Shown here: positions 24,047 to 60,105 of the stretch, in pieces | Position numbering within the stretch: position 1 is the stretch's first letter | Layout: every line of letters starts with the position of its first letter | Virus record (IMG/VR): IMGVR_UViG_3300023184_000042 | Location: 68,304 to 132,303 of that record | Length of the DNA: 64,000 nucleotides | Origin: a virus | Reading direction: 5' to 3' (one strand) | Translations under genes and position numbers: made by a program | The notes under the pieces: generated by a model | What the model was told of the DNA's origin: nothing | Databases searched by the model: none | The model's input: the letters and a program-made list of their open reading frames with translations, nothing else

Positions 24047-24964
24047 ATGATAAAATTAAAAAGTCTTTTAAACTTAAAAGAAGAGGAAGATAAAGCAGGA
24101 GAGTCGTTAATATCAACTCAAGATGCTGTTAATGCTTTTTTCAAAAAAAATAAATCTGCATTAGAAAAATTATCTGATGATGATGACTGGGACGCATTTT
24201 ACGATTTAGGATTTGATGCATTTCCAGACATCGATCAAGATGATATTGCTCAAGCTTTAAATAGTGCAATGTTAAATTCTGGCTGGGTAGAAAATGAAGA
24301 CGTTTCTGTAATGCCAACTGAAAAGGATTTAGAATTAGCAGCATTTGGAGATAAAAAACTTCAAAAAGGAATAGACATTGCTGCATATGATAAACTAGCA
24401 AAACTACCTAAAAACCCAGAAAACATTAAAGAGTCTTTAAAAAAAAAAGGTAAGGTAACAGAAATGGCTAACACAGAGTCTACAAAAGTAGATTCGTTTT
24501 TAGGTACTATTAAATCTTCAGTTAAAAGTGCAAGAGTTGTACAACAAGTAACTGATTTTATTAATATCGCAAGATTAGATCCATACGCCTCTTATAAAAG
24601 CCTTTTAAAAGATTTACTTTTATTTTACAAAGGTAATAATGAAGTATATAATATAGTGCAGTCTGGCCTTCAAGAATCTAAAAAAAAAGAAGCACTCTGC
24701 GAAATTGATCAAATAGAAGAAGCAGAGTATAAAGGAAGAAAAGTAAAATTAGGGAAACCTTTTTATACTCCCGGAGGTCCTAGAAAGCGAGCAGTATACG
24801 TCAGAAATGACAAAGGTAATGTCGTTAAAGTAGGGTTCGGAGAGCCTGGAATGAAAATTAAAAAAAATAATCCTGCTCGAAGAAAATCTTTTAGAGCAAG
24901 ACATAATTGTGAAACCCCTGGACCTAGATGGAAAGCTAGATATTGGTCCTGCAGAGCATGGTAA
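24047..24964 (+). CDS. Putative head-packaged protein; acidic N-part and basic C-terminal domain
   Basis: MIKLKSLLNLKE leader; internal IKE/VTE/LQE sites; C-terminal VKVGFG...RRKSFRARHNC...RYWSCRAW. Confidence 0.6.
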   Translation: MIKLKSLLNLKEEEDKAGESLISTQDAVNAFFKKNKSALEKLSDDDDWDAFYDLGFDAFPDIDQDDIAQALNSAMLNSGWVENEDVSVMPTEKDLELAAFGDKKLQKGIDIAAYDKLAKLPKNPENIKESLKKKGKVTEMANTESTKVDSFLGTIKSSVKSARVVQQVTDFINIARLDPYASYKSLLKDLLLFYKGNNEVYNIVQSGLQESKKKEALCEIDQIEEAEYKGRKVKLGKPFYTPGGPRKRAVYVRNDKGNVVKVGFGEPGMKIKKNNPARRKSFRARHNCETPGPRWKARYWSCRAW

Positions 24965-24968
24965 TAAT

Positions 24969-25886
24969 ATGAAAACAAATTTAATTATAGAAGCAGCTAG
25001 ATTACAAAAATTAGCTGGTATAAAATTAGCTGAAGATTTTAAAGATGACGTTGAAGATATTAAAAAAGCGCCATTAGCAACAGCAGTAGATAAAATTAGA
25101 GATTTAATTAAAGATCCGGATTTTATTGATAAAGCAACTTCAGGAGAAAAAGACGGTGCTAACAAAGACGAATCAATTAGTTTTTCAGAAGGAAATCCGT
25201 CATGTTTAGATATGTTACCAAGTCAAGCAGAAATTGGATTTGGTAATAGTTTAGCTGACATTTGCAATGACAAATTTGGAGCAATCGATTCTGCATTTTC
25301 TAATCCTGTTCTAATGCCGTCTAAAGCTGGTAAAATACCAGTATTAACTGCTAGAATTGGAAGTGATATAGTAATATTAGATGGACATCATAGATGGTCA
25401 TTATGTTTTATGATCAATCCAGATGCTAAAATGAAATGCGATATTATGGAAACTCCAACAGGTTTCAAAGCTGCTGATGCTTTAAAAATTATGCAATTAG
25501 CTATTGGCGTTGAAGCTGGCAAAGTAGTTACTAACCCATTTGAAGGTAAAGATTTAATGGCTGTATCTACAAAAGAAGTAATTAAATATGTTACTGAAAA
25601 TATAGGAGAAAAGGAAATAGCTACATTTACAAAATATAAACAGGAATTGAATAGCAAAGAATCAATAGCAAAATATATTGGCGAATCACATAAAAAAATA
25701 GTAGCCAAGAAAGGACCTTTTCCTAGAATTATAATGCCTCAAGCAGGAGATTCAGGAGCTTCACAAGATTCCGTAAATACTGCTTTGGAAAAAGGAGAAA
25801 TCAATTTCAATGACCCATATAAAAAAGAATCTGTCAATAAAAGATTAGACTCCATGCTTAAAGAATCTTTTATAAAAATAAAATAA
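24969..25886 (+). CDS. ParB/Srx-like nuclease-fold protein with a putative capsid-targeting leader
   Basis: Start re-assigned to ATG 24969 (MKTNLIIEAARLQKLAGIKLAE); MLPSQAEI and VILDGHHRW motifs. Confidence 0.7.
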   Translation: MKTNLIIEAARLQKLAGIKLAEDFKDDVEDIKKAPLATAVDKIRDLIKDPDFIDKATSGEKDGANKDESISFSEGNPSCLDMLPSQAEIGFGNSLADICNDKFGAIDSAFSNPVLMPSKAGKIPVLTARIGSDIVILDGHHRWSLCFMINPDAKMKCDIMETPTGFKAADALKIMQLAIGVEAGKVVTNPFEGKDLMAVSTKEVIKYVTENIGEKEIATFTKYKQELNSKESIAKYIGESHKKIVAKKGPFPRIIMPQAGDSGASQDSVNTALEKGEINFNDPYKKESVNKRLDSMLKESFIKIK

Positions 25887-25887
25887 A

Positions 25888-26400
25888 ATGATCAAATTAA
25901 AAGACATATTAAAAGAAGCTGAAGGAGAAGCTCCAAAGTGCCCAGTTGCTACTCAAAATGTAGAAGTAAATTTAGAGCACCGACAAATAGCTATTGAAAA
26001 GTATGGATATGGTCCTTTGAATCCTAATAATCCAAATGTAAAATTTTGGAAAGCAAAACAAGCTTTATGGAAAGAAGATACTATAGAAGGAGCTAAATCT
26101 GCAAGATGTAATTCATGTGCTGCTTTTAATGTAACTTCTAGAATATTAAGCTGTATTGAAAAATCATTAGCTTCAGATGTAGTTCCGGAAGAAGAGCCAG
26201 TTGAGGAAGGAGAAGATATTCAAACTCAAACACCTGCTCCAGATCCGGAATTAGACGACACTGAAGGAGCTGATAAAGACGCTTGGGACACAATAGAAGC
26301 AGGTAAATTAGGATATTGTATGATGCATAAATTCAAATGTGCAGGTTCTAGAACATGTAATGCTTGGGTAACAGGTGGTCCAATTAAAGATAAAAAGTAA
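25888..26400 (+). CDS. Cys-rich (HiPIP-like) protein with a putative capsid-targeting leader
   Basis: MIKLKDILKE; RCNSCAAF...GYCMMHKFKCAGSRTCNAW. Confidence 0.55.
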   Translation: MIKLKDILKEAEGEAPKCPVATQNVEVNLEHRQIAIEKYGYGPLNPNNPNVKFWKAKQALWKEDTIEGAKSARCNSCAAFNVTSRILSCIEKSLASDVVPEEEPVEEGEDIQTQTPAPDPELDDTEGADKDAWDTIEAGKLGYCMMHKFKCAGSRTCNAWVTGGPIKDKK

Positions 26401-26403
26401 ATT

Positions 26404-26643
26404 ATGCCATTACAAAAACCAGTTTTGCAAGCTGCAATATTAGCAGCATTTCAAAAGCAATCAGCGCCATCAGCAAATTTAGCCGCTGCACAAGCACAGC
26501 TAGCTGCTGATTTAGCAACAGCTATTGATGAATACATTAAATCTGCTAAAGTAACTATTCCGCCAGGTCAATTAGTAATAGCCGGGTCTCCTCCAGGTCC
26601 AGGAGCGTGTGTAGCACCTTCTCCGAACGCACTTATATCTTAG
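26404..26643 (+). CDS. Small hypothetical protein (possible baseplate spike-associated)
   Basis: LAADLATAIDEYIKSAKVT followed by a Pro/Gly-rich tail. Confidence 0.5.
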   Translation: MPLQKPVLQAAILAAFQKQSAPSANLAAAQAQLAADLATAIDEYIKSAKVTIPPGQLVIAGSPPGPGACVAPSPNALIS

Positions 26644-26646
26644 TAA

Positions 26647-26685
26647 TTACTGTCTTTTATATTTATATTAAATAAAAGGCAGTAA
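26647..26685 (+). promoter_or_regulatory. Late motif ATATTTAT (26659-26666) at a hairpin apex; stem ends 3 nt before ATG 26689
   Basis: TTACTGTCTTTTAT pairs with ATAAAAGGCAGTAA, 14 bp with one G-U. Confidence 0.7.
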
Positions 26686-26688
26686 ACT

Positions 26689-27358: not shown

Positions 27359-27364
27359 AAATTT

Positions 27365-28957
27365 ATGTCAAATACAAATATGTCCTTAAAGGATATTATT
27401 AAGGAAGAATACAAAAAATGTTTGTTAGATCCTGTTCACTTCATGAAGAAGTACTGTCAGATTCAACATCCACAAAAAGGTAAAATTCCATTTCACTTAT
27501 ATCCATTTCAAGAAAGAGCGTTACGTGATTTAAGAGACCATGATTATAATGTAATTTTAAAATCTAGACAGTTAGGTATTTCAACTTTATCTGCGGGATA
27601 TGCTTTATGGTTAATGACTTTCTTTAACGATAAAAATATTTTAGTTATTGCAACTAAACAAGAGGTTGCTAAAAACTTAGTTTTAAAGGTAAAGGTAATG
27701 TATGAAAATTTACCTTCATGGCTGAAATTACCGGCTACAGAAGATAATAAATTATCATTAAGATTAAATAACGGTTCGCAAATTAAAGCAACGTCATCGT
27801 CAGGGGACTCAGGTCGTTCTGAAGCATTGTCTTTATTAATAATAGATGAGGCAGCATTTATTTCCAATGTAGAAGAAATTTGGATATCAGCACAACAAAC
27901 TCTAGCAACTGGAGGAGGAGCTATTATTTTATCAACGCCTAACGGTACTGGTAATTTCTTTCATCAAACATGGGTAGGGGCTGAAGAAGGAACTAATCAA
28001 TTTAACACAATTAGACTGCATTGGTCTGTGCATCCTGACAGAGATCAAGCTTGGAGAGATAAACAAGATGTTCTTTTAGGATCTAAAGGAGCCGCTCAAG
28101 AATGTGATTGTGACTTTATATCGTCTGGTCAAACTGTAATTGAAGGAGCATTATTGCAATGGTATGAACAAACTTCTGTTCAAGATCCTATAGAAAAACG
28201 TGGTATAGACGGTAATTTATGGATTTGGGAACAGCCTGATTACACAAGAGATTACATTGTAGTAGCTGACGTTGCTCGTGGAGATGGAGGAGATTATTCT
28301 GCATTCCACGTATTAGATGTAGAGTCAATAACTCAAGTAGCAGAATACAAAGGACAAATGAGTACTAAGGATTATGGTAATCTTTTAGTAAATATAGCTA
28401 CAGAATATAATGATGCATTACTAGTAATTGAAAATGCAAATGTGGGCTGGGCTTCAATTCAAGTAGCAATAGATAGGCAATACAAAAATATTTACTATTC
28501 TCCTAAAGATGGTGGTATATCAGATGTCTCCCAACAACTAGCACGATATGTAGATTTAAAAGATACTTCTCAAATGACTCCTGGATTTACAACTTCTTCT
28601 AGAACAAGGCCATTAGTGATATCAAAATTAGATACTTATATGAGAGAGCGAATTCCAGTAATTCGCAGTAAACGACTCATAGCAGAACTTTTTGTATTTA
28701 TTTGGAATGGTTCCAGAGCAGAAGCACAACGAGGGTATAATGACGATTTAACTATGGCATTTTGTATTACACTATGGATTAGAGATACGGCATTGAAACT
28801 TCGTCAACAAGGAATGGAATTGAATAGAAAAACTTTAGAACACTTTGGAAAAGGTGCCGGAGCATATTCAGCAGGATACCGAAGTGATGTAGGATGGTCA
28901 ATGAATACAGGTCACAATGGTCAAGGTCATGATGAAGATTTACGCTGGTTATTATAA
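27365..28957 (+). CDS. gp17: Terminase large subunit (T4 gp17-like)
   Basis: LYPFQ; LKSRQLGIST Walker A; LLIIDEAAF Walker B; STPNG; nuclease ADVARGDGGDYS and NDDL. Confidence 0.96.
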   Translation: MSNTNMSLKDIIKEEYKKCLLDPVHFMKKYCQIQHPQKGKIPFHLYPFQERALRDLRDHDYNVILKSRQLGISTLSAGYALWLMTFFNDKNILVIATKQEVAKNLVLKVKVMYENLPSWLKLPATEDNKLSLRLNNGSQIKATSSSGDSGRSEALSLLIIDEAAFISNVEEIWISAQQTLATGGGAIILSTPNGTGNFFHQTWVGAEEGTNQFNTIRLHWSVHPDRDQAWRDKQDVLLGSKGAAQECDCDFISSGQTVIEGALLQWYEQTSVQDPIEKRGIDGNLWIWEQPDYTRDYIVVADVARGDGGDYSAFHVLDVESITQVAEYKGQMSTKDYGNLLVNIATEYNDALLVIENANVGWASIQVAIDRQYKNIYYSPKDGGISDVSQQLARYVDLKDTSQMTPGFTTSSRTRPLVISKLDTYMRERIPVIRSKRLIAELFVFIWNGSRAEAQRGYNDDLTMAFCITLWIRDTALKLRQQGMELNRKTLEHFGKGAGAYSAGYRSDVGWSMNTGHNGQGHDEDLRWLL

Positions 28958-28962
28958 AGATT

Positions 28963-28971
28963 GATATTTAT
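28963..28971 (+). promoter_or_regulatory. Late promoter motif GATATTTAT
   Basis: 21 nt before the portal ATG. Confidence 0.65.
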
Positions 28972-28992
28972 TTAAAATCACTTAATTAAATT

Positions 28993-30893: not shown

Positions 30894-30902
30894 CATATTT
30901 AT
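30894..30902 (+). promoter_or_regulatory. Late promoter motif CATATTTAT
   Basis: 25 nt before ATG 30928. Confidence 0.65.
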
Positions 30903-30927: not shown

Positions 30928-31773
30928 ATGAAAAATTTAAAGCACTCAAAGTTTAAAAACACCGGCGTACTATTCGAATTACTTGTTCGCCAAGTTGCGT
31001 CCGATACTTTGAACAATAATGATTCAAAGGCGATACCGCTTATCAAGAAGTATTTTGCTAAATCAACAACTTTAGCAAAAGAACTTAACTTGTATCAAAC
31101 TTTAGTTAAAGAGCATTTCACAAAAGAAGAAAAAGCTAATCATTTAATTGAAGCAGTGTTAGTGGCTAAATCGCAAATTAATCAAGCAACGTTGAACAGA
31201 CAAAAATATAACTTGATTAAAGAAATTCGAGATACATATAATATTGAAGATTTTTTCAAATCAAAAGTTAATAACTATAAAACTCTAGCAGCAATTTATA
31301 AATTATTTGAATTTACCATTGCTGATAACCCTACAGAGTCTGTTAATAACAGGTACACTATTATTGAGCATATAACTCGTAAAGAAGTAAAAGTTAAAGC
31401 AGAGTTAAATGAAATGGCTGCGTTTGTTAAACAAGACAAAGATGTTAGATTGTTATCTTATAAAATTTTAGTTGATAAATTCAATGACAAATATTCAAAT
31501 TTGAATGAAGGTCAAAAATCAATTTTAAGAAACTATATTAATACAGTTTCAGACGGTCCAGATTTAAAAGATTTTGTTGTTAAAGAGTCCGCTAAACTGC
31601 AAAAAGACTTAAAGTCGTTAACTTCAAAAGTTGATGATGCTGTCGTAAAAATTAAATTAGCTGAAGTAACTAATTTGCTAAATGAGCTAGCTTCTGTTAA
31701 GACAATTAAAGACAATCATATTTTGAATTTGTTACGTTATCATGAATTAATTAAAGAACTTAAAAAAGTATAA
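30928..31773 (+). CDS. Helical head-morphogenesis protein (prohead core-like)
   Basis: Lies between portal and protease; KHSKFKNTGVLFELL; NLNEGQK motif also present in the scaffold. Confidence 0.55.
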   Translation: MKNLKHSKFKNTGVLFELLVRQVASDTLNNNDSKAIPLIKKYFAKSTTLAKELNLYQTLVKEHFTKEEKANHLIEAVLVAKSQINQATLNRQKYNLIKEIRDTYNIEDFFKSKVNNYKTLAAIYKLFEFTIADNPTESVNNRYTIIEHITRKEVKVKAELNEMAAFVKQDKDVRLLSYKILVDKFNDKYSNLNEGQKSILRNYINTVSDGPDLKDFVVKESAKLQKDLKSLTSKVDDAVVKIKLAEVTNLLNELASVKTIKDNHILNLLRYHELIKELKKV

Positions 31774-32135: not shown

Positions 32136-32564
32136 ATGTCATATTCAGATTCATTTAAAAAATTCCTTTTAAAGGAAGCAGCTTTAGATACCGGGGAGCC
32201 TAATAGATATATGTTTTTTAGTAATATTAAACAAATACATAGACAATGTGAAATTTTATTAAAAATGGATCAGGCTCAACTTGAAACTATTTTAGATTCT
32301 GGGCATGACTGGGCTGAAGATCATATGACAGCTGCAACTACTCAAATAGACGATGTGTTTGATTTTTTAATGAATGAAACTAAGTCAGAAGTTACTGAAA
32401 TGTCTGATTCAGGCGGAGCAGGACCTTACAGCACCCCTAACGCTTTTGGAGATTTAGGAAATGACACTATTGAAATGTTAGGATATAAAAAAGTCAAAAA
32501 GAAAAAATCAAATGTAGCGGAATCTACTTTTATGAGGTTGTCGTCTCAATTACATTTAAAATAA
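32136..32564 (+). CDS. Putative head-packaged protein
   Basis: MSYSDSFKKFLLKE leader; MNE/VTE/VAE sites; acidic. Confidence 0.55.
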   Translation: MSYSDSFKKFLLKEAALDTGEPNRYMFFSNIKQIHRQCEILLKMDQAQLETILDSGHDWAEDHMTAATTQIDDVFDFLMNETKSEVTEMSDSGGAGPYSTPNAFGDLGNDTIEMLGYKKVKKKKSNVAESTFMRLSSQLHLK

Positions 32565-32568
32565 TATC

Positions 32569-33180
32569 ATGGAAAATAAAAAATTATTAGTAGACTATAT
32601 CACCTTTGAAGTTTCGCCAGAGAAGATAAACGAGTCTATAGAGAAAAACGGAGGCCGCTTAATGGTTAAAGGTACATTGCAAAGAGCAGACGCTTTAAAT
32701 CAGAATGGACGTAAATATCCTAAAGATATATTAATGCGTGAAGCTAAAAAGTATTCTGATATTAATATCAAAGAAAGAAGAGCGTTAGGAGAATTAGATC
32801 ATCCAGATTCTTCAGTTGTCAATTTAAACAATGTATCTCATAACATTACTGAAATGCATTGGGAAGGCAATGATTTATGTGGAACTGTAGAAGTTTTATC
32901 AACACCTTCAGGAAACATCTTAAAAGAATTATTCAAATGCGGTATTAAATTGGGCATCTCGAGCCGTGGTTTAGGGTCTGTCAAACAGCTTGGAGAATCT
33001 GAAGTTGAAGTGCAAAATGACTTTGAATTAATTGCTTTTGATTTTGTATCTAATCCATCAACTCAAGGAGCGTTTTTAGCGCCAATGCATGAATCTGTTA
33101 ATCACAATCAAACACATCAGTCATCTAAATATGGCAATGTAAATAGATTGATAACTGATATCTTAACTGACACTAAATAA
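32569..33180 (+). CDS. gp21: Prohead protease (T4 gp21-like)
   Basis: NQNGRKYP, ALGELDHP, VSH, GISSRGLGS and DFVSNPS. Confidence 0.95.
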   Translation: MENKKLLVDYITFEVSPEKINESIEKNGGRLMVKGTLQRADALNQNGRKYPKDILMREAKKYSDINIKERRALGELDHPDSSVVNLNNVSHNITEMHWEGNDLCGTVEVLSTPSGNILKELFKCGIKLGISSRGLGSVKQLGESEVEVQNDFELIAFDFVSNPSTQGAFLAPMHESVNHNQTHQSSKYGNVNRLITDILTDTK

Positions 33181-33569
33181 TGAAAGCTGAATTGAAAAGA
33201 CTTATAGAGTCAGAAGTTAGAAAAGCTTTAACTGAATCTATTACAGAACCTTCAGAGCAAATTTTAAAAGGAGCTGTAGATGTATTTAGACAACAAACAG
33301 GTATTAATCCTGCTACTCCTACTTTAACTAAAAAAGGTAATAATGTTGTTGTTTATTCTACTTCTTTAGAAAAAGAAATTAGAACAAATATAATGAAGGC
33401 AATGTTTAATTCTTTAGCTCTAGAAGTTGTAGTAACTCCATTACCAAATATAATAGGAGGATATACATTTTTATTCAGATTTAAGTTTGTTCATCCATTT
33501 GGTAAACAAGAAACTTTAGAGTCTGGAACAGTATTATTTAAAAATAATAAATTCTCAGCACAATTTTAA
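33180..33569 (+). CDS. Putative head-packaged protein
   Basis: MKAELKRLIESEVRKALTESITE leader. Confidence 0.55.
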   Translation: MKAELKRLIESEVRKALTESITEPSEQILKGAVDVFRQQTGINPATPTLTKKGNNVVVYSTSLEKEIRTNIMKAMFNSLALEVVVTPLPNIIGGYTFLFRFKFVHPFGKQETLESGTVLFKNNKFSAQF

Positions 33570-33570: not shown

Positions 33571-34314
33571 ATGCCATATTCAGTAAGAAAAGAAGATGGA
33601 AAATATGCTGTATATAAAAAAGACTCTGGCAAATTAGTTGGCAGAACAAAAGGAACAAAAGAAGCATTACGAAAATATCTAGCAGCGTTACATTTAAACG
33701 CCGAAAACATAAATAACGAATCTATGAGTAAGAATCCTATTAAACTTGCATCACTTATTAAACTTAAGGAAAATAAGTCTGCGACCGATGGAATGTCATC
33801 GAAACAGAAAAAAGCTTTTTTAGAAGCAGTATATAAATTTGCAGAACATTCTAAATCTATTTACAGAACTCACAATTTAAGAGAGACCTCTAAATATTTA
33901 GGAGAAATGATCAACGCTGCAAATCATTTAACTTTATCAGAGACTGAAGAATGGTTTGATCATCAGACTGTAGGACGTCATATGAAGCATTTAGGGGAGG
34001 CTCACAAAATATTTGAAAAGACTGCTCAAGAAATGTCAACGCTTCAACAACGTCTAGAAGCTTGTTATGAAGACATAGGATCTACATTGAACAAATATTA
34101 TGATGTAGGTGGTATGGTAAACGAAGCTTCAGCAGTAGCAGGAGCAGGTCAAGATTATCAAAAGTTCTTTACAAAAGCAATGAAGAAATTTAAAATTCAA
34201 GAGCCTTCAGATTTAGAAGACGATAAATCAAAGAAAAAATTCTTTAATTGGATTGACGCTAATTATCAAGCACCTGAAGAGCCTAAAGAAGATAACGAAG
34301 AAAAAGAAGAGTAA
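33571..34314 (+). CDS. Head-cluster protein (putative internal/core protein)
   Basis: Basic N-terminal domain, then INNE and internal PIKLASLIKLKE tag; coiled coil. Confidence 0.55.
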   Translation: MPYSVRKEDGKYAVYKKDSGKLVGRTKGTKEALRKYLAALHLNAENINNESMSKNPIKLASLIKLKENKSATDGMSSKQKKAFLEAVYKFAEHSKSIYRTHNLRETSKYLGEMINAANHLTLSETEEWFDHQTVGRHMKHLGEAHKIFEKTAQEMSTLQQRLEACYEDIGSTLNKYYDVGGMVNEASAVAGAGQDYQKFFTKAMKKFKIQEPSDLEDDKSKKKFFNWIDANYQAPEEPKEDNEEKEE

Positions 34315-35033
34315 TGAGATTAGCCCCTATAGCACAAAATATTGTAATACGTTCATATATGAGAACGTTGTTAGAAAATATATCAGGCGATGCAGCTGCT
34401 GTGCAAAAACAAGTAGTTTCATTAGCTAATGAACTAAAAGCAGATGGGGAAGATATTACAGATGAAGAAGTTCAAGCTGCAATGCTTAAAGCATTAATTG
34501 ACGCAGATGGTAAATTAGACCAGGTTGATGTTTCAGATATTGAATCAATTAAAACTGAAATTAAAGAATCAAGAAGTTATTTAACCGAAGAGGGAGGCGC
34601 GCTTCATGCTATTGAGTTAGTAGGTACTATTTTAGGAAATGCCGCATTAATACATTTAATGGCAGGTGGATTTAAGAAAGTGGGTATTAATATGGACGAA
34701 TCTAAATTTAAAAAAAATATAGAAAGAGTTATTGGCTGGGTAAAAACAATAACAGGATTTCCAGCTAAAATGATGGAAAAGGCATTTACTTGGATAGCAA
34801 AAAAATTAGGGCTTGGCTTGACAGGTCAAAAAATAGCAGGATTAGCAGGTACGCTAGTTGTAACCGCTGCCTTTTTAGCATTAGCAATTTATTTATTTCC
34901 ATCCATAACTTCAGGGGTTGCTTTAATGTTCGCATTATCAGGCATGATAGGAAAGTCTTTAGAAATTAAAAAAATCCTAGCTGAAATTTGGGAGCATATC
35001 AAAGAACATCAAGCAGAACTTAAAGCTGCTTAA
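34314..35033 (+). CDS. Putative head-packaged membrane-inserting protein
   Basis: MRLAPIAQ...LLE leader; IKE/LTE sites; two to three hydrophobic helices in the C-terminal half. Confidence 0.55.
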   Translation: MRLAPIAQNIVIRSYMRTLLENISGDAAAVQKQVVSLANELKADGEDITDEEVQAAMLKALIDADGKLDQVDVSDIESIKTEIKESRSYLTEEGGALHAIELVGTILGNAALIHLMAGGFKKVGINMDESKFKKNIERVIGWVKTITGFPAKMMEKAFTWIAKKLGLGLTGQKIAGLAGTLVVTAAFLALAIYLFPSITSGVALMFALSGMIGKSLEIKKILAEIWEHIKEHQAELKAA

Positions 35034-35211: not shown

Positions 35212-36090
35212 ATGAAAGATTTATTGAAAGAAGCAATTGCTGATGCAAAAGCTGTAAAACAAACTGCCCTTGCTAATGCTAAATTAGCTTTAGAAGAAGC
35301 GTTTACTCCAAGACTTCAATCTATGTTATCTGCGAAATTAGCTGAAGAACTTTCTGAAGAGGAAGAAGAAGTTGAAGACACATATACAGAAGATGAAAAT
35401 TACGAGGATGACACGACTTCAGAAGCTCCAGTAGAAGAAGGCGAAGAAGAAACCACTCCAGAAGACGTTCCAGCTCAAGACGAAATGGAAGAAGGAGAAG
35501 AAGATGATGATTTAGATTTAGAAGAAATCATCAGAGAATTAGAAGGCGAAGATTCAGAAGAAGAAGTAACAGAAGCAGATGATTTTAACGATTATGATGA
35601 CAATGGAGCTATTTCTGATGAAATGTCTGAAGGAGAAGACGAAGAAGATGAAGACATCGACATCAATGAAATTATTCGTTCTTTAAGAGAAGAAGATGAA
35701 GAAGAAGAAATGACTGAAGGTGAAGAAGAAGATTCTGAGGAATTAGAAGAAGCTTATAACGTAATTCGTTTCTTAAAAGGTAAAATCAATGAAGTTAATT
35801 TATTGAATGCTAAACTTCTTTACTCAAACAAATTGTTCCGTAATTTTGCATTGAATGAAGGTCAAAAAATGAAAGTAATTGAAAACTTTGACAGAGCTCA
35901 TAATTTACGTGAAGTGAAATTAGTTTTCTCAACATTAGCTGAAGGATTCAAATCTCCATCAATTAAAAAGTCAATTAAAGAATCATACGCATCGAAGCCA
36001 GTTGCTTCAACTAAACCAGCAAAGCGTATTTTATCTGAAGGAGCTGATTTAGCATCAAGATTCCAAAAATTAGCAGGTTTAAAAAAATAA
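35212..36090 (+). CDS. Prohead scaffolding/core protein (T4 gp22-like role)
   Basis: Extremely acidic with many xxE sites; immediately upstream of the major capsid gene; ends RFQKLAGLKK. Confidence 0.8.
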   Translation: MKDLLKEAIADAKAVKQTALANAKLALEEAFTPRLQSMLSAKLAEELSEEEEEVEDTYTEDENYEDDTTSEAPVEEGEEETTPEDVPAQDEMEEGEEDDDLDLEEIIRELEGEDSEEEVTEADDFNDYDDNGAISDEMSEGEDEEDEDIDINEIIRSLREEDEEEEMTEGEEEDSEELEEAYNVIRFLKGKINEVNLLNAKLLYSNKLFRNFALNEGQKMKVIENFDRAHNLREVKLVFSTLAEGFKSPSIKKSIKESYASKPVASTKPAKRILSEGADLASRFQKLAGLKK

Positions 36091-36118: not shown

Positions 36119-37792
36119 ATGTCATTAAAATCAATCTTAAACGACAGTAACTCTCAAGTACGTCGTCAAATGGATGAGACCAAAGGCCTAGTAGGTAAAT
36201 GGTCAAAGACTGGTTTATTAGAAGGTATTGATAGCGAATACGACAAACATGGTATGGCTATTATGCTTGAAAACCAAGCTAAACAATTAGTAACTGAAGC
36301 TAACTCGACTGGGCAAAACAGTAACTCTGAGCAATGGTCAGGTGTTGCTTTACCATTAGTAAGAAGAGTATTTGCTGAAATTGCAGCAAAAGATTTCGTT
36401 TCTGTTCAACCAATGAATTTACCATCAGGACTTGTGTTCTATATGGATTTCAAATACGGTACGGCTGCAGGTGGTTTCACAACTACTAACAATGCTGTAG
36501 GTGGTTTATCAACTACGGATTCAGGTTATCAAACTAACTCTGTATTTGGTGTAACTAATACAGTAGGTGACCCAACAGGTGGTTTATATGGTGCAGGTAG
36601 ATTTGGATATGCAATTAATGATGCAAAAGTTAATGCTTATGTTTCTGCGTCTTTAACTCCAGGTGCTACTTCTGCGTCTATCGCTTCTGTAATTCCAGCA
36701 GTAGGTGCAGATGATGATTCATTTAACTATGATACAAAATTCATCAATACTTATTCAGGTTCAACTGCATTCAAAAAAATAACTATTTCTTCTTCATTAT
36801 TAACTAATGCAGATTTAAATGGAGCTAGAGCTTTCGCTATCACAGGATCAGGAATCTCTGCTTACTTCCCACAATTCACAGCAATTAATAACACTGCGTC
36901 TGGAACGACAATTTCATTCATTGTTTCTGGATCTATTCCATTAACAGCTACTGCAGCTCACGTTATTTATCAAACTCAGCCAACTGCTAATGGTAGAGGT
37001 GACTTTGAAGATACGACAGGAAACATGACAGACATCAATATTCCAGAAATCAACGTAGAGTTGAAATCAGAGCCAATTGTTGCTAAAACAAGAAAATTAA
37101 AAGCTATTTGGTCTCCAGAGTTTGCTCAAGATTTAAATGCATACCACTCAATCGATGCTGAAGCTGAATTAACTTCTATGTTATCTGAATATATCTCTCA
37201 AGAGATTGATTTAGAAATTTTAGATATGTTAATCCAAAATGCAGTAACGACTGAAAGATGGTCTGCTCAAGTAGGATTTGAATATGCTTCAGCAACTGAT
37301 CAATTTGCTCAATCTGGTTTCACAGGAACTGCTTATACTCAAGGAACTTGGTTCCAAACTTTAGGAACTAAAATCCAAAAAGTATCTAACAAAATTCACC
37401 AAAAAACCATGAGAGGTGGAGCAAACTTCTTAGTATGTTCTCCAGACGTTGCTACTATATTAGAGTCTATCCCAGGATATGCTGCTGATACAGACGGAAC
37501 TAAAATGCAATTTGCAATGGGAGTTCAAAAAGTAGGTATGTTGAATTCAAGATTTACAGTATACAAAAACCCTTATATGACTGATAACGTAATATTATTA
37601 GGATATAGAGGTGCTCAATTCCTTGAGACTGGTGCTGTATATGCTCCATATATTCCACTTATCATGACTCCATTAGTATACGATCCAACAAACTTTACTC
37701 CACGTAAAGGTGTTATGACTCGTTACGCTAAGAAAATGGTAAGACCAGAATTCTATGGTACTATTAAAGTACACGGATTGCATTTAGTATAA
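36119..37792 (+). CDS. gp23: Major capsid protein (T4 gp23-like)
   Basis: KWSKTGLLEG, MLENQ, LPLVRR, VSVQPMNLPSGLVFY, AKTRKLKAIWSPEFAQDLNAYH, YAPYIPL and FTPRKGVMTRYA. Confidence 0.97.
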   Translation: MSLKSILNDSNSQVRRQMDETKGLVGKWSKTGLLEGIDSEYDKHGMAIMLENQAKQLVTEANSTGQNSNSEQWSGVALPLVRRVFAEIAAKDFVSVQPMNLPSGLVFYMDFKYGTAAGGFTTTNNAVGGLSTTDSGYQTNSVFGVTNTVGDPTGGLYGAGRFGYAINDAKVNAYVSASLTPGATSASIASVIPAVGADDDSFNYDTKFINTYSGSTAFKKITISSSLLTNADLNGARAFAITGSGISAYFPQFTAINNTASGTTISFIVSGSIPLTATAAHVIYQTQPTANGRGDFEDTTGNMTDINIPEINVELKSEPIVAKTRKLKAIWSPEFAQDLNAYHSIDAEAELTSMLSEYISQEIDLEILDMLIQNAVTTERWSAQVGFEYASATDQFAQSGFTGTAYTQGTWFQTLGTKIQKVSNKIHQKTMRGGANFLVCSPDVATILESIPGYAADTDGTKMQFAMGVQKVGMLNSRFTVYKNPYMTDNVILLGYRGAQFLETGAVYAPYIPLIMTPLVYDPTNFTPRKGVMTRYAKKMVRPEFYGTIKVHGLHLV

Positions 37793-38543: not shown

Positions 38544-39110
38544 ATGAAATTAAAAGATATATTAGATACAGTTTTAGAAGATATTGAAAAAGGATGGCAA
38601 AAACAATTTGTACAAGGTCAAGTATATTCTAATCCATTTGCTAATTCATTTAATCAAATAAATGAAGGAGTAGTTAAAACTGTAATTATAATGATAGGAT
38701 TGCCTGGCTCAGGAAAATCTACATTTATTAAAAAACTACCTAGCGCTCCTGTAATTTGCTCTGCAGATAATTATTTTGAATCACCTGATGGTAAATACAA
38801 TTTTGATGCTACTCAATTAGGTAATGCTCACAACCAATGTAGAAACAAAGCTGCATTGGCAATGCATCAACAAAAACCTACTATTGTAATAGATAATACA
38901 AATTTAACAGACAAAGAAAGAGCTCCATATGAACAGCTAGCAGAAGAAAATGGCTATAAAATTTTATATGTAGTATTTGAACCAAATAAACAAAATATTA
39001 AGAAACTAGCACAGCGTAATCTTCATGGCGTAGAAGCAGCTAAACTAGAAGTTATGATGAAAAGATTTCGACCACCTAGTGGCGAAAAAGGAAAAATAAT
39101 CTTTAAATAA
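38544..39110 (+). CDS. P-loop kinase (polynucleotide kinase/AAA_33-like) behind a putative capsid-targeting leader
   Basis: MKLKDILDTVLE...QINE then IGLPGSGKST, CSADNYF, IDNTN and RNLHGV. Confidence 0.8.
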   Translation: MKLKDILDTVLEDIEKGWQKQFVQGQVYSNPFANSFNQINEGVVKTVIIMIGLPGSGKSTFIKKLPSAPVICSADNYFESPDGKYNFDATQLGNAHNQCRNKAALAMHQQKPTIVIDNTNLTDKERAPYEQLAEENGYKILYVVFEPNKQNIKKLAQRNLHGVEAAKLEVMMKRFRPPSGEKGKIIFK

Positions 39111-46373: not shown

Positions 46374-46405
46374 TTTGGTAGATTGAAAAATTATACTTAT
46401 CTTTA
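46374..46405 (+). promoter_or_regulatory. Bacteroidota-type promoter
   Basis: TTTG (46374-46377), 20-nt spacer, TATCTTTA (46398-46405). Confidence 0.6.
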
Positions 46406-46422: not shown

Positions 46423-46647
46423 ATGACAAAGACATTATTAAAACAAATAATTAGAGAAGAAGTTCGTAAAGCATTAAATGAAGACCCTCAAACTTCAGTA
46501 ATGCGTTCACATCCTGGCATGGTTGAAGAAATTATTGAAATGCTTAAACACATTGATGTAGATGGAGAAACAATGGAATATATCCTAGACAAAGTGGGAA
46601 TGACCGAGCAAATGCAACATCAATTGACTCCAGGCGGAATTAGATAA
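46423..46647 (+). CDS. Small putative head-packaged protein
   Basis: MTKTLLKQIIREEVRKALNE leader. Confidence 0.6.
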   Translation: MTKTLLKQIIREEVRKALNEDPQTSVMRSHPGMVEEIIEMLKHIDVDGETMEYILDKVGMTEQMQHQLTPGGIR

Positions 46648-46726: not shown

Positions 46727-47080
46727 ATGACACCAGATAAATTCAAACAACTTTTAAAGGAATTTGCTCCACAAAGACAACTTCAAGAAGCAGATGTAAT
46801 TCCTGTAGGGCCAGATGGTAATGAAATCACAGATAAAAGAGTCATAGCCAACTTGAACCTAGCAGTAAAGGCAGTAGATGCAAGTCTACGACCTAAGTTA
46901 GTGCAGATACTTCAAGATCCGGATGCAGCAAAAGCATTGAAAAATCCTGCACAAAGAGCAGCGTTGGTAGGGGCAATTGCAATTGCTTTTGGAATGACAG
47001 AGCAAGAATTTTCTCAAATAGTAGGAAAGATAAAAGGAATGTTAAAAACCACAACTGCTCCTGAAAATGATCAAGCTTAA
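46727..47080 (+). CDS. Putative head-packaged protein
   Basis: MTPDKFKQLLKEFAPQRQLQE leader. Confidence 0.55.
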   Translation: MTPDKFKQLLKEFAPQRQLQEADVIPVGPDGNEITDKRVIANLNLAVKAVDASLRPKLVQILQDPDAAKALKNPAQRAALVGAIAIAFGMTEQEFSQIVGKIKGMLKTTTAPENDQA

Positions 47081-47609
47081 ACCTATAGCAGAGCAAGTAC
47101 TCAATGAAGCTGAAGAAACTATTACGTGGGGAGAAGTTTCTAAATTACTAAATGCAATTAAAGGAAAGCAAAACAAAACTGAAGTTGCTGGAGTATTAAA
47201 AACAGCGGGTAAATGGGGTGCTTCACTTCTTCCTGGGTTATCAATTATATCTACAGTATTAGATACTTATGATAATATATCAGATATCAAAGACGTTGCT
47301 AAGTCATTATTGACAATTGGTAAAAATGTATCTAATAACGAAATGAAAAATCCTAAAGGTTCAGATTTTAAAAATTTAACAGGTCCATTTTGGGATGCAC
47401 TTAAATTATCTCCAGAGGTATCAACTTTACTAGATGATAAAGTAGAAGCTATGTTCATCAATCAAGTAATTATACCAGAGTTAGGAAAGCCAGGAAATGA
47501 AAATCAACCAATACCAAACATGGATATTGAATTAGGTAAATGGTTAAACAAATCAGGATTAGAAGACAAAGCTGAAATTCACTTTACAGGTAAATCAGGA
47601 AACCTTTAA
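47067..47609 (+). CDS. Putative head-packaged protein
   Basis: MIKLKPIAEQVLNE leader. Confidence 0.55.
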   Translation: MIKLKPIAEQVLNEAEETITWGEVSKLLNAIKGKQNKTEVAGVLKTAGKWGASLLPGLSIISTVLDTYDNISDIKDVAKSLLTIGKNVSNNEMKNPKGSDFKNLTGPFWDALKLSPEVSTLLDDKVEAMFINQVIIPELGKPGNENQPIPNMDIELGKWLNKSGLEDKAEIHFTGKSGNL

Positions 47610-47666: not shown

Positions 47667-48536
47667 ATGGCACAAGTTAATGACAACTACCCGAAGTCGA
47701 ATAACACTGAACTTACTGATGCTCAATTAAAAGATTTAGCATTATCAAATTTAGCTCGGCAAGAAGTAAAAGCTTCTAATTTTCCAACTGAAATAATTTC
47801 ATTGCCATCTAAAGGATTAGTATATCCTGAAGGTAATCCTTTGCGAGAAGGAACTATTGAAATGAAATACATGACAGCGCGAGAAGAAGATATTCTTACT
47901 TCACAAAATTTAATTAAACAAGGAATTGTATTAGATAAACTAATGCAGTCAATGATTGTATCTCCTATTAGATATGAAGATTTAGTAATAGGCGATAAAA
48001 ATGCAATAATGATATCTTCTCGTATTTTAGGATACGGAAAAGATTATCAAGTAGAAGTTGCATGTCCAAATTGCCAAGAAAAAAATAAAATTAATATTGA
48101 TTTAACTCAATTACCTGAAACTAATATTCCAGAAAATGCTGTAATGGTAGCTCCGGGAATATTTGAATTTATATTACCACAATCTAAACGAGTAATACAT
48201 TTTAGATTATTGACAACTGGAGATGATAAAAGAATTAGTAAAGAAATTGAGCTAGCTAAAAAAGCAAGTAAAAACAACCAAGGTATAGACAGAGAATTAA
48301 CAACTAGATTAAAAAATCTAATAGTATCTGTAGATGGAGATGCTGATAGCAGATTAGTTGCTAATTTTGTAGATAATGAATTATTTGCAATAGACTCTAG
48401 AGCTTTAAGAACTTATATTAGAGATATATCTCCAGACATTAAATTTGAACAATATTTCGCTTGTACCGAGTGCGACCACGAAGAGGAGGCGTTGGGATTC
48501 GGTATTGACACCAACTTTTTTTGGCCTAAGTCCTAA
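47667..48536 (+). CDS. Baseplate hub/tail assembly chaperone (T4 gp26-like)
   Basis: ISLPSKGLVY, MTAREEDIL, CPNC and CTEC; ends NFFWP; located between tube and tape measure genes. Confidence 0.75.
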   Translation: MAQVNDNYPKSNNTELTDAQLKDLALSNLARQEVKASNFPTEIISLPSKGLVYPEGNPLREGTIEMKYMTAREEDILTSQNLIKQGIVLDKLMQSMIVSPIRYEDLVIGDKNAIMISSRILGYGKDYQVEVACPNCQEKNKINIDLTQLPETNIPENAVMVAPGIFEFILPQSKRVIHFRLLTTGDDKRISKEIELAKKASKNNQGIDRELTTRLKNLIVSVDGDADSRLVANFVDNELFAIDSRALRTYIRDISPDIKFEQYFACTECDHEEEALGFGIDTNFFWPKS

Positions 48537-48810: not shown

Positions 48811-49179
48811 ATGAAAATTTCGGAATTTAAAAACCTTATCAGAGAAGAAATTAACAATGTTGCTGGAAAGCAGCAATTGCGAGAAGGCGTAGTTGATAAA
48901 ATTATAGCTGCTATCATCGACAAAGTTGTTAAAGTAAAATATGGTAAATATTTTGATAGCCTGCATAAAGATCCTGAATATATAGAAGCTCTTAAAGGTG
49001 TTAAAACAGCTGCGGATAGAATTAACATGGCAGGAGAAAGAGCTGTAAAAGCAAAGATGCAATGGCAAAAAACATATGATGCATATGCTAAGCAATATGG
49101 AAGAAAGGCAGCTGACAGGATTGTATCTCAAGCTAAGGCAGGTACATATGACCCTTTTAAGATATCTTCTAAAAAATAA
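48811..49179 (+). CDS. Basic putative head-packaged protein
   Basis: MKISEFKNLIREEINNVAGKQQLRE leader. Confidence 0.6.
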   Translation: MKISEFKNLIREEINNVAGKQQLREGVVDKIIAAIIDKVVKVKYGKYFDSLHKDPEYIEALKGVKTAADRINMAGERAVKAKMQWQKTYDAYAKQYGRKAADRIVSQAKAGTYDPFKISSKK

Positions 49180-57121: not shown

Positions 57122-57123
57122 AA

Positions 57124-57762: not shown

Positions 57763-57785
57763 AACAAAAGAATTATATATATTGT
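57754..57785 (+). promoter_or_regulatory. Bacteroidota-type promoter before DNA polymerase
   Basis: TTTG (57754-57757), 20-nt spacer, TATATTGT (57778-57785). Confidence 0.6.
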
Positions 57786-57792
57786 CTAGGTT

Positions 57793-59142
57793 ATGAAAAT
57801 TATAGAAACGAAATTAGAGTTTGAGTCATTCCTAGAAAAATCTAAAGGGTACGATTGGATTGTCGTACCCACTTACTGTAATGGCGAAAGACCAGTTTAT
57901 ACAGACTCTGTTTCAGTTGTGTATGTGTATGTTATCAATTTAGATAAAGAAGTAATGATTGTATTCAATCATACTGAAGGTCTTTCACTTTCTGAAGAAT
58001 TACTAAATGAATTTCCAGAAGATACTAAATTGTTTGTTTATGGCAAAAAGAAGTTTAAAAGATTTCTAGATCGTAAAAATATAATTGATATGAATATGGT
58101 TGAGTACTTTCATAAGAATCAACCTATTGAAGATGATTTTGATACACCTGCTCACGAGTTCTTTACAAGACACTTTGAAAAATTCAATAATCTAAATGCA
58201 ATCATTCCAATTACAAAGCATATTGAAAAGGGGCAATCTATAGCTCAAAGATTTTTAGATGTTTATGATTTCTTTCATGAAGATGTAGCCTTTACCAATT
58301 ACAATGAATTGATTTTAGATTCTCTTGCTCAAATAGAACAAAATGGATTATTCACTCATTACGATCAATACAAAAAACAATTCAAGGAAGCTCCTTTATA
58401 TGAGAACTTTGCATATACTGAATATAACATTTACACTACTACAGGAAGACCTTCAAATAGGTTTGGAGGAATAAATTATGCGGCGTTGAACAAAGACAAT
58501 GGGCAACGTGGTGCATTTTGTTCTAGGTTTGGAGAAAATGGCTTTATGCTTTCTTTTGATTACGATGCATATCACTTAAGACTTCTAGCAGAGTTAGTTG
58601 ATTATAAATTTCCAGAAGGATGTTCAGTGCATGAGTATTTAGGTAAATTTTATTTTCAAAAAGAAACTCTTACTCCGGAAGAATATTCAGAAGCTAAATC
58701 TATTTCATTTAGACAACTTTATGGTGGTATAGGTCAAGAGTATTTGGAAATTCCATTCTTTGAAAAAATACACAGATACACTCAATTAATTTGGAGTCAG
58801 TACAAAGATGAAGGGTATATTGAAACGCCTATGTTTGGAAGAAAATTGTTTAAATCATTCTTTGGTGATATGAATGCAGCAAAGCTTTTAAACTATTTAT
58901 TACAGTCTTATGAAACCGAGAGGAACATGGCCGTAATTCATAACATACTTCTACGTACAAAGGCGTATTCAAGTAAACTAATACTTTATACATACGATAG
59001 CTTCTTATACGATTTCGACAAACGAGACGGCGCTACGCTTGTTAAATTGATTCAAGAAGAATTAGAGCAGGGAGGAAAGTTTCCTGTGAAGTTGGAAATA
59101 GGCCCAGATTATAATAACATGATTGTACCAAAAAGACACTAG
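57793..59142 (+). CDS. Atypical compact family A DNA polymerase
   Basis: TTTGRPSN; motif A FDYDAYHLR; motif B AKSISFRQLYG; NYLLQS; motif C YTYDSFL. Confidence 0.8.
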   Translation: MKIIETKLEFESFLEKSKGYDWIVVPTYCNGERPVYTDSVSVVYVYVINLDKEVMIVFNHTEGLSLSEELLNEFPEDTKLFVYGKKKFKRFLDRKNIIDMNMVEYFHKNQPIEDDFDTPAHEFFTRHFEKFNNLNAIIPITKHIEKGQSIAQRFLDVYDFFHEDVAFTNYNELILDSLAQIEQNGLFTHYDQYKKQFKEAPLYENFAYTEYNIYTTTGRPSNRFGGINYAALNKDNGQRGAFCSRFGENGFMLSFDYDAYHLRLLAELVDYKFPEGCSVHEYLGKFYFQKETLTPEEYSEAKSISFRQLYGGIGQEYLEIPFFEKIHRYTQLIWSQYKDEGYIETPMFGRKLFKSFFGDMNAAKLLNYLLQSYETERNMAVIHNILLRTKAYSSKLILYTYDSFLYDFDKRDGATLVKLIQEELEQGGKFPVKLEIGPDYNNMIVPKRH

Positions 59143-59145
59143 TTA

Positions 59146-59154
59146 TATATTTAT
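59146..59154 (+). promoter_or_regulatory. Late-type motif TATATTTAT
   Basis: Upstream of the 59185-60105 gene group. Confidence 0.45.
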
Positions 59155-59184
59155 ATATGATAATATCGTTTATAAATTACAACA

Positions 59185-59568
59185 TTGGTACAATTAATTT
59201 GTTTATTTTGCTTGGAAGATTCTTTAGATCATACAGTTACTATGATTTCAAAGACTTACGAAGTTGTTTATAAACGAATATTTGTACTTTCCATAGATAG
59301 CAGTGAAGAGCTTATATGCAGTTTCAATGTTGAAAAAGGAAACCATAGAAAACAATTACCAGCAGCAATGTTGGTTCATAGAAAAAAAGAAACTAATACT
59401 TTATACACTATTAATTCTTTGAATGCTTTAATTAGAAAAGAAAATGACGGAATATTAGATAATAAATATTCTGTGGATTGGACTAAATATTCCAATGCTT
59501 TACTAGTAACTTCTAATAATGAACTAAAAGTATTAAATACTAAAGTATATCAAATTATAAATTTATAA
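59185..59568 (+). CDS. Hypothetical protein
   Basis: TTG start; LVHRKKETNTLYTINSLN. Confidence 0.65.
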   Translation: MVQLICLFCLEDSLDHTVTMISKTYEVVYKRIFVLSIDSSEELICSFNVEKGNHRKQLPAAMLVHRKKETNTLYTINSLNALIRKENDGILDNKYSVDWTKYSNALLVTSNNELKVLNTKVYQIINL

Positions 59569-59576
59569 TATTAACT

Positions 59577-59882
59577 ATGACACAATCCGAATTTAAAAAA
59601 TTAATTAGAGAAGAAATTCAAAATACTCTTCAAGAACTATCTCCACTATCAACAAATGGATGGGCCGATGGTAATTATTTACAAGCAGCTGTTGCTCGAC
59701 AACTAAACGCTGCAGGTAGCGCTTTAACCAGAAAACGCGAAGCCAATTTAAAGAAAGACATTACTGATGAAGTTATGTTGAAAAAAGAAATTGATACTAT
59801 ATTAGCTACTTATGGATTTGTTTTATCAAAAGATTTTAATAAAATTTATAAAGCTAGAAACGGAAAAGAATATAACGAATAA
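59577..59882 (+). CDS. Putative head-packaged protein
   Basis: MTQSEFKKLIREEIQNTLQE leader. Confidence 0.6.
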   Translation: MTQSEFKKLIREEIQNTLQELSPLSTNGWADGNYLQAAVARQLNAAGSALTRKREANLKKDITDEVMLKKEIDTILATYGFVLSKDFNKIYKARNGKEYNE

Positions 59883-59883
59883 T

Positions 59884-60105
59884 ATGAAAGCATCTGAATT
59901 CAAAGCTCTTATCAAAGAAGAAATAAAAAAAGCAATGAAAGAATCTGCAATGTCAGACATTGATTTAATGGCAAAAGATGCCATTACATTTAATGCGTTT
60001 GCAGTGGAATTCTTCAAAGAATATCCAAATATTAAACAAGACGAAAAAATGGGATTCATTAAATGGTTAAAAACCGTTTATACAGATGCCAAGAAAAATA
60101 AATAA
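59884..60105 (+). CDS. Putative head-packaged protein
   Basis: Start re-assigned to ATG 59884: MKASEFKALIKEEIKKAMKE. Confidence 0.6.
   Translation: MKASEFKALIKEEIKKAMKESAMSDIDLMAKDAITFNAFAVEFFKEYPNIKQDEKMGFIKWLKTVYTDAKKNK

Follow-up and report, generated by a model that had tools for sequence, protein, structure and literature searches.

Why should a phage begin dozens of otherwise unrelated proteins with variants of the same few short peptides? This question is raised by the last 64 kb (G000:C1:68304-132303) of the 132,303-b IMG/VR virus record IMGVR_UViG_3300023184_000042, a record that is rated 70% complete in IMG/VR. These 64,000 nucleotides are called the window here; positions are those of the window unless they are marked as genome positions, which count along the whole record. 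The long open reading frames (ORFs) in the window, including every gene located below, are all on the + strand, and the G+C content is ~32%. The phage is, by its Pfam and PHROGs matches, a distant T4-like myovirus whose nearest named phages by capsid protein are Microcystis phage Mel-JY01 (60%) and Flavobacterium phage immuto (57%), with Rhodothermus phage RM378 more distant at 36%. An earlier note on this DNA had pointed to related amphipathic leaders, which we call tags, at the N-termini of unrelated proteins between 24047 and 60105, had sorted them into classes A, B and C, and had proposed that they load their cargo, the remainder of each protein, into the capsid in the manner of the T4 capsid-targeting sequence (CTS). 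All 14 of the strings that it listed, including the internal one, are present where it had seen them. The analysis that follows makes it reasonably probable that the tags are prohead-targeting propeptides of the T4 CTS kind, which would mimic the scaffold protein and be removed by an S77-family prohead protease.

The number of tagged genes exceeds the about 14 passengers originally proposed. Specifically, ~33 of the ~170 ORFs of the genome are tagged, 19 of them upstream of the window, and tagged proteins make up about a fifth of the phage proteome. The upstream half contains seven consecutive class A genes (genome 6492-11727), six consecutive class B genes (genome 11808-15732), and further tagged genes at genome 3072, 4119, 4566, 15737, 26423 and 56447. 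When the 137 proteins of at least 90 aa from the whole record were compared (10-mer BLOSUM62 score of at least 30), 91 protein pairs, involving 36 proteins, shared a similar 10-mer within residues 2-24, as against 7 pairs (14 proteins) in each internal control segment. Unbiased clustering of these N-terminal pairs gave one 28-member cluster that includes the scaffold protein; the SbcCD-like gene at 4381, the large terminase (TerL) gene at 27365 and genome ORF 21009 are probable false positives. Position matrices made from the tags, with the seeds counted among the hits, were also scanned across 167 ORFs at a threshold of at least 10 bits. The class A matrix gave 14 hits, of which 11 are at residues 1-2, one is at an in-frame Met, one is a true internal copy and one is a weak internal match, and all 13 hits of the class B matrix begin within residues 4-8 or at the alternative start 59884. 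Weak or family-specific versions at 32136, 34314 and 46727 are less firm members of the set.

Several observations indicate that the shared element is a peptide. Within the tags, Ile, Leu, Lys, Asp and Glu are each encoded by freely varying codons, and the 30 nt upstream are without conservation, which indicates that selection acts on the tag peptide. BLASTP among the tagged proteins confirmed that their cargos are unrelated. The description of the tags as portable N-terminal modules on unrelated proteins is thus borne out, both by this synonymous variation and by the leader swaps between orthologues that are described below. The earlier note had also asked whether the motif is equally frequent on non-virion proteins. 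It is not, as no recognisable replication, repair or nucleotide enzyme is tagged; untagged proteins that reach a family cut-off number 18 in the window and 21 of the 74 scanned upstream. The motif strings were found in no paper of the literature that we searched.

A pointer to mechanism comes from the scaffold gene (35212..36090), which lies directly upstream of the major capsid protein (MCP) gene and codes for a protein with 31% Asp+Glu and no family match in Pfam or PHROGs. Residues 2-7 of this protein match the class A tags, and its last 16 residues carry the class C core, with a hydrophobic-x-Glu site before the core. As the database records discussed below were chosen by their tags, 80 loci were refetched by capsid-protein similarity alone, blind to tags, giving 41 non-identical head modules. 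In these modules the scaffold N-terminus is class-A-like in 34 of 41 cases, and the scaffold C-terminus is an RLQKLAG-type class C motif in 37 of 41. Of 54 distinct scaffolds, 42 have their last hydrophobic-x-Glu at a distance of 14-16 residues from the C-terminus. The scaffold thus has the order site then core peptide and the cargo proteins the order core peptide then site, so that one cut would sever the same peptide from both. At the sequence level, class A resembles the scaffold N-terminus and class C is the conserved C-terminal motif of the scaffold, and the notion of the tag classes as arbitrary address labels gives way to one in which two of the classes copy scaffold termini.

The scaffold also contains two internal acidic repeats, each with a short hydrophobic-rich helix. 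A derivation of class B from these repeats was rejected, the class B matrix having no hit of at least 10 bits in the scaffold. Co-variation of the scaffold C-terminus with the class C tags of the same phage was looked for by eye and none was seen. Note that the corresponding gene of immuto (NC_055915.1 125626-126867) is annotated as 'DNA polymerase phi-like protein'; judged by its position, its acidity and both of its termini it is the scaffold gene.

We also asked whether the tags occur together with the protease that would remove them. The gp21 homologue that the earlier note had placed at 32569 is confirmed: the product of 32569..33180 is a prohead protease of the S77 (T4 gp21) family (PF03420, 103.9 bits, cut-off 27) with 33% identity to T4 gp21 by BLASTP (E 9e-26). 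Its likely cleavage rule can be read from the MCP (36119..37792, gp23 family), which aligns with T4 gp23; past its conserved E-N-Q motif, residues 58-61 (V-T-E|A) supply the first hydrophobic-x-Glu. Across 27 sequences both L57 and E60 are invariant, and 42 of 55 distinct capsid proteins have A or S directly after the E60 position. The MCP maturation site is therefore probably after E60, which would fit the T4 rule. Among the tag-bearing IMG/VR records listed, an S77 protease is present in 21 of the 42 with class A tags, in 20 of the 44 with class C tags, and in all six that are at least 90% complete. The remaining records are fragments of 7-74% estimated completeness, so their S77 misses say little, and the six near-complete records indicate that the tags do accompany a gp21-type protease.

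In many of the tag-bearing records a tagged gene lies directly downstream of the protease gene. In the sample selected by MCP, 25 of 140 ORFs between protease and scaffold have a strict class A or class B tag, and the flanking ORFs have one in 16 of 473 cases (odds ratio 6.2, p 5.5e-8); the interval also contains many further leaders that look tag-like and are below threshold. The protease-scaffold interval is a hypervariable locus that is enriched in tagged genes. The earlier comparison of the tagged genes to morons is supported, in that they are accessory, moron-like insertions, and they are concentrated in the head-morphogenesis operon.

The head operon of the window illustrates this arrangement. 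Directly upstream of the protease gene, in the position of T4 gene 68, the product of 32136..32564 has a family-specific 14-residue N-terminus ending L-K-E, and in a homologue from IMG/VR locus L176 a class C tag takes its place. Directly downstream of the protease, 33180..33569 codes for a class B protein with the tag at residues 1-19; its AlphaFold2 (AF2) model has a helix at residues 2-18, a linker at 19-25 and a globular part at 26-129, and a fold search with this family model gave no match at E <=0.001. The product of 33571..34314 has an internal class-A-like tag at residues 56-67 (nt 33736-33771), and the orthologue in the complete IMG/VR relative G007 has the tag at its start. It is followed by 34314..35033, which codes for a hydrophobic, probable membrane protein with a 21-residue N-terminus ending L-L-E, orthologues of which retain the N-terminus and the L-x-E. 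As a separate observation, 30928-31773, directly after the portal gene, codes for a 281-aa protein without a family match, the N-terminus of which is conserved in immuto, in the complete relative G025 and in others. It may act in head assembly, and the tags might have it as a partner.

Comparison of orthologues shows where tag ends and cargo begins. In the 33180 family a single core is preceded by class B or class A leaders of differing length, with L17 and E19 of the terminal motif at least 90% conserved. The ParB-like family of the class C gene at 24969 has 209 database relatives, and in 96 of the 118 listed relatives with a complete N-terminal region the conserved core is immediately preceded by a hydrophobic-x-Glu. 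Among these 96, 44 have a class A leader, 6 a class C leader, 8 a C-variant and 6 a D-like one, with 32 leaders of other kinds; most of the 22 that were missed have the same motif in a form that the regular expression did not cover. E22 is at least 90% conserved in 46 sequences of this family. Thus, as the earlier note had described, the tags end in hydrophobic-x-Glu, and this motif is conserved at the junction across swapped leaders in both families. In longer ParB-like relatives the domain of the upstream gene is fused on, and an internal linker keeps the class C core or, failing that, the junction motif; internal tag copies occur likewise in genome ORF 10392 and in window ORF 33571. A gp21-type site (Leu/Ile-x-Glu, then a small residue) is present at tag ends and conserved at junctions. 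The residue that follows the class C core is S/N/G/A/T in 82 of 93 cases and E in 9 more among the matches listed (S/N/G alone account for 74 of 93), and the residue that follows the class A tag is E/S/A/D/G in 55 of 81. In the AF2 models of two tagged proteins a confident globular domain is preceded by a helix of lower confidence (residues 2-16 or 2-18) and then a 7-residue linker, within which the junction lies.

The tags are not confined to this genome. An exact back-translated search with the ten-residue class A tag found 98 IMG/VR stretches; of 81 distinct cases, 75 have a stop codon at most 25 codons upstream. For the nine-residue class C core there are at least 123 IMG/VR stretches, and of the 134 matches listed 122 have it at the N-terminus, 3 at the C-terminus and 9 elsewhere. 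A class B core pattern found 22 stretches, 11 of them readable, of which 9 are N-terminal by a stop-and-Met test, one is at a Met without an upstream stop in view and one is cut by the contig end. The same tag peptide recurs in phages with MCPs only 55-60% identical. When 185,579 prokaryote genomes were searched with the class C DNA pattern, 12 stretches were found, 9 of which translate to the core, and none of these 9 is tag-like and N-terminal (7 are inside longer frames and 2 come after a stop without a start codon). Regarding close relatives, immuto has a smaller tag set in four classes, the fourth leader being absent from this genome; its tagged ORFs include those at 24569, 25061, 102294, 111675 and 118632 of the immuto record. 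Class A genes number about 4 in G007 and about 7 in G025. With 91 N-terminal pairs here versus 20-22 in relatives, this genome is an extreme case.

As to what the tags carry, Pfam and PHROGs gave no match reaching the cut-off on the tagged proteins except AAA_33, a P-loop kinase-like domain, in the product of 38544..39110, which has a class-A-like tag at residues 1-12 (10.2 bits). The class C gene 24969..25886, with its tag at residues 1-22 (nt 24969-25034), the RLQKLAG core and an L-A-E end, starts at an in-frame ATG inside ORF 24909-25886, and homologues begin at the same Met. Its cargo has no Pfam match at E <=1, and a DGHHR motif is invariant in 46 sequences of the family. The best Foldseek match of its model has an E of 6e-3, and VIA gave Z 4.6-6.0 for 31 rows of the ParB/Srx superfamily with unrelated rows at Z <=2.8; with matches to this superfamily only and middling scores, the predicted cargo is ParB/Srx-like. 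The ParB-like and kinase labels that had been proposed therefore hold, at modest strength.

A further cargo lies upstream of the window, where genome 10392-11360 is a fusion-like ORF composed of a class A tag, two repeats of the N-terminal domain of the 24047 protein, an internal class A tag and an ADP-ribosyltransferase (ART)-PolyVal-like domain. Residues 195-293 match ART-PolyVal (PF18760) at E 0.018 and 16.3 bits, below the cut-off of 31.2, and an Atlas structure search with the C-terminal half gave TM 0.74 to an ART-PolyVal cluster, a score at which that search assigns a name. The modelled C-terminal half, right after the internal tag, thus appears to have an ART-PolyVal-like fold. The same search also lists an ART-PolyVal+MuF_C cluster.

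The remaining tagged genes of the window are as follows. The gene at 24047..24964 has a class A tag at residues 1-12 (nt 24047-24082; 15.7 bits at residue 2) and a C-terminal domain conserved among relatives with other N-termini. The class A tag MIKLKDILKE forms residues 1-10 of the 25888..26400 product (29.6 bits), whose Cys-rich cargo has no family match. Further along, 46423..46647 has a class B tag at residues 1-20, and its immuto orthologue is entirely without a tag; 46727..47080 has a weak class-B-like N-terminus at residues 1-12, 47067..47609 a class-A-like tag at residues 1-14, and 48811..49179 the class B tag MKISEFKNLIREEI (33.8 bits). Two more class B genes adjoin each other at 59577..59882 (residues 1-20, 33.5 bits) and 59884..60105 (30.3 bits), the latter starting two bases past the stop of the former at an in-frame ATG of ORF 59812-60105. 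In a side observation, a 911-aa ORF at 20072-22807 has a nucleotidyltransferase-like N-terminus, its immuto counterpart is annotated NadR-like, and residues 388-512 of the ORF product share homology with the cargo of the tagged gene at genome 26423-26968.

Two promoter-like motifs, M1 and M2, are enriched in intergenic DNA and probably mark two temporal gene classes. M2 is found 21-52 nt upstream of portal, sheath, tube, hub, adaptor and fibre-like genes, with two copies before the tube gene, and it is also found upstream of tagged genes or of operons containing tagged genes. Its copies in the window are at 22809, 28964, 30895, 39935, 43202, 45777, 45824, 47636 and others. The copy at 22809..22817 (+) heads the unit 22834-23430-24047-24969-25888, and those at 30895, 37869, 46704 (before 46727), 48785 (before 48811) and 59147 precede tagged genes or their operons. 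M1, which has a longer conserved core, is located 23-51 nt upstream of non-structural genes at 11.7-50 kb, with copies at genome 11782-49493 and at 46398 in the window, upstream of the tagged gene 46423. When each gene was assigned to its nearest upstream motif, 25 of the 33 tagged genes were behind M2 and 8 behind M1; for the first 54 kb the odds ratio is 4.7 (p 0.005). A gp55-like late sigma factor was not found by PHROGs among the candidate ORFs, so the 'late' label of M2 comes only from the genes that it precedes.

Putting these results together, we infer binding, cleavage, packaging and injection of the tagged proteins along the following lines. During prohead assembly a 10-22-residue amphipathic N-terminal helix would let an unrelated protein join the scaffolding core or a partner of the scaffold ends, with class A imitating the scaffold N-terminus, class C its C-terminal motif and class B serving as a third interchangeable helix. 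The S77 protease would then cut after the tag-terminal hydrophobic-x-Glu, as is expected for the scaffold and for the N-terminal domain of the MCP. The freed cargo (ART-PolyVal-fold, ParB/Srx-like, P-loop kinase-like and many orphans) would stay in the head, and part of it would presumably be ejected with the DNA; other tagged members, especially those of the head operon, may be disposable core components. A wider claim, that an aquatic T4-like clade of ~130-250 kb loads dozens of separate effectors by interchangeable copies of its scaffold ends, with the same cut freeing scaffold and cargo, is a serious possibility that we put forward tentatively.

A number of observations weigh against this scaffold-mimicry interpretation. 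The cleavage specificity of the protease is taken only from the alignment of the MCP to T4 gp23, hydrophobic-x-Glu is common in Lys/Glu/Leu-rich helices, and Leu follows 5 of the 13 class A tags here, as compared with the small residues at T4 sites. The strict matrices tag only 18% of the ORFs in the protease-scaffold interval. A conserved class-B-like N-terminus is found on the product of genome 56447, next to the baseplate module, and together with the four tagged genes of the tail module this indicates that the tags are not confined to head genes. Seven of the 8 tagged genes assigned to M1 are the class B array, which carries both motifs, and 46423 has only M1, the motif typical of non-structural genes. 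Internal proteins embedded in DNA would be expected to be basic, which mature cargo overall is not, and ~33 cargo species, a fifth of the proteome, are far beyond any known phage. Finally, no virion-proteome paper for this clade was found in the literature searched.

The presence of tags on genes in tail and baseplate neighbourhoods, and the ease with which a Lys/Glu/Leu-rich helix yields hydrophobic-x-Glu, would also suit an explanation in which the helices are docking or oligomerisation modules of late accessory proteins that remain unpackaged, meeting at a shared hub, at the membrane of the prohead site or on a chaperone, with the scaffold likeness being that of a generic amphipathic helix. 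We consider this unlikely, given that the class C core is a specific 7-9-residue motif that is also the scaffold C-terminus in 37 of 41 modules, that 0 of 9 prokaryote core stretches are in a tag-like N-terminal context, that the junction Glu is conserved even with another domain as the leader, and that tagged genes are enriched between protease and scaffold. A different explanation takes its cue from the tagged head-operon genes 32136, 33180, 33571 and 34314, and holds that tagged proteins, like T4 gp67 and gp68, serve the prohead core or its assembly and are disposable, being targeted and then degraded, with no effector role. T4 degrades gp22, gp67 and gp68 into peptides, as a passage of its head review relates (PMC9958956), and many tagged proteins contain further hydrophobic-x-Glu sites. 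However, the ART-PolyVal-fold, ParB/Srx-like and kinase-like cargo fits effectors better than scaffolding, as do the tandem arrays of fast-diverging orphans, and the AF2 models are of compact folded domains past the linker, which makes this explanation quite unlikely.

It is highly improbable that the tags act as N-terminal degrons, by which a Clp-type machine would destroy late proteins at a set time. The genome does encode two ClpP homologues (genome 25127 and 52348) and AAA genes (genome 9 and 17163), and the tagged gene at genome 26423 is close to the first ClpP gene, but a degron leaves unexplained the identity with a scaffold terminus, the enrichment in the head operon, the internal copies at junctions and the conserved junction Glu. 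Conservation at the nucleic-acid level, be it of a translation-initiation region, a translational operator or a cassette for shuffling genes by recombination, would have recombination at conserved 5' ends produce the tandem arrays and cassette-like tag swaps that are in fact present, and such recombination may be a side benefit of the tags. As a cause of the conservation it is extremely improbable, in that the free variation of tag codons largely refutes it, the 30 nt upstream are unconserved, and the same peptide is found in phages with such divergent MCPs. Scaffold mimicry followed by proteolytic release therefore remains our preferred interpretation.

Other genes of this phage complete the picture of a T4-like genome. 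Pfam and PHROGs place TerL at 27365, a gp20-type portal at 28993, the sheath at 43254, the tube at 45864 and the baseplate hub at 47667, with replication genes located at both window ends. A single 1054-aa ORF (4381-7545) joins a Metallophos (SbcD/gp47-like) N-terminus to an SbcC/gp46-like AAA_23 body, unlike T4 where the two parts are encoded by two genes. A 449-aa ORF (57793-59142) matches family A DNA polymerase over its C-terminal part only. As family A polymerase is annotated as two separate genes in immuto, the polymerase may be split. Upstream of the window are a cluster of 17 tRNA genes (genome 40142-42293), two ClpP-family protease genes that are additional to the S77 prohead protease (genome 25127-25726 and 52348-52983), and AAA+ genes at genome 9-1034 and 17163-18344.

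Regarding known systems, the T4 CTS is ~10 residues long, and gp21 removes the N-terminal peptides of the internal proteins (IPs), Alt, gp23 and gp24, with Alt being cleaved at ITE-6, according to passages of two papers (PMC9958956, PMC5694885). The mechanisms that localise proteins to the T4 scaffolding core "remain mysterious" in the wording of one passage of the 2023 T4 head review (PMC9958956). The T4 CTS (IPII/IPIII; propeptides of IPI, Alt and gp24) and the tags here are alike in being a short N-terminal peptide on unrelated proteins that ends in hydrophobic-x-Glu. Both systems have an S77-family protease and accessory, hypervariable genes, and one cargo here (genome ORF 10392) is predicted to have an ADP-ribosyltransferase-like fold, the fold of T4 Alt. 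Class B resembles the T4 ipII/ipIII N-terminus by eye only, in sequences too short for homology to be established; also by eye, residues 6-10 of T4 gp22 match residues 7-11 of ipII/ipIII at 4 of 5 positions. Unlike T4, this phage has at least three or four interchangeable tag classes rather than one and ~33 tagged genes rather than ~5; some of these genes form tandem arrays, some tag copies are internal and lie where two domains meet, and one tag class is identical to the scaffold C-terminal motif.

If true, scaffold mimicry would also explain how the T4 CTS finds the prohead core. The clade is a natural experiment, with hundreds of tagged genes, tag classes swapped on the same cargo and tags equal to scaffold ends, and it turns the question of core localisation into a testable hypothesis, namely entry by scaffold mimicry and release by one protease cut. 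It also offers a large pool of probable injected effectors in abundant environmental phages (ART-fold, ParB/Srx-like, kinase-like and many orphans), and the short portable peptides might be tested as a means of bringing foreign proteins into phage heads. What is new here is the scaffold likeness of class A and class C, the tag-rich protease-scaffold locus, the S77 link, the placement of M2, and the predicted ART-PolyVal-like and ParB/Srx-like cargo.

The giant phages phiKZ and SPN3US likewise have many head-internal proteins that are cut by a gp21-related protease at x-x-Glu, with paralogues having identical N-termini, as described in a passage of PMC5694885. Their propeptides are mostly 80-160 residues, and no scaffold homologue is known in these phages, whereas the tags here are 10-22 residues and copy an identifiable scaffold. 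The ART, kinase and ParB-like domains of polyvalent proteins are thought, in a passage of PMC5512222, to be delivered through the capsid. Polyvalent proteins, MuF-fused effectors and the phage P1 Dar proteins (DdrB with a ParB-like domain) contain the same kinds of domain as the cargo predicted here. In polyvalent and MuF proteins the domains are strung together in one giant protein or fused to a head protein, whereas here they are separate small tagged genes, as if the polyvalent arrangement had been disaggregated. Some relatives re-fuse two cargo domains with the tag retained as a linker.

Short peptides that direct proteins into shells are also known elsewhere. The herpesvirus protease and scaffold pair has one common C-terminal capsid-binding tail, the HK97 protease has C-terminal targeting, and encapsulin cargo has cargo-loading peptides. 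As would be the case here, cargo in these systems enters an HK97-fold shell by means of a short peptide of the scaffold, and a maturation cut releases it. In contrast, their peptides are C-terminal and serve one or few cargos, whereas here a C-terminal motif of the scaffold appears to be reused at many N-termini; we claim no common descent.

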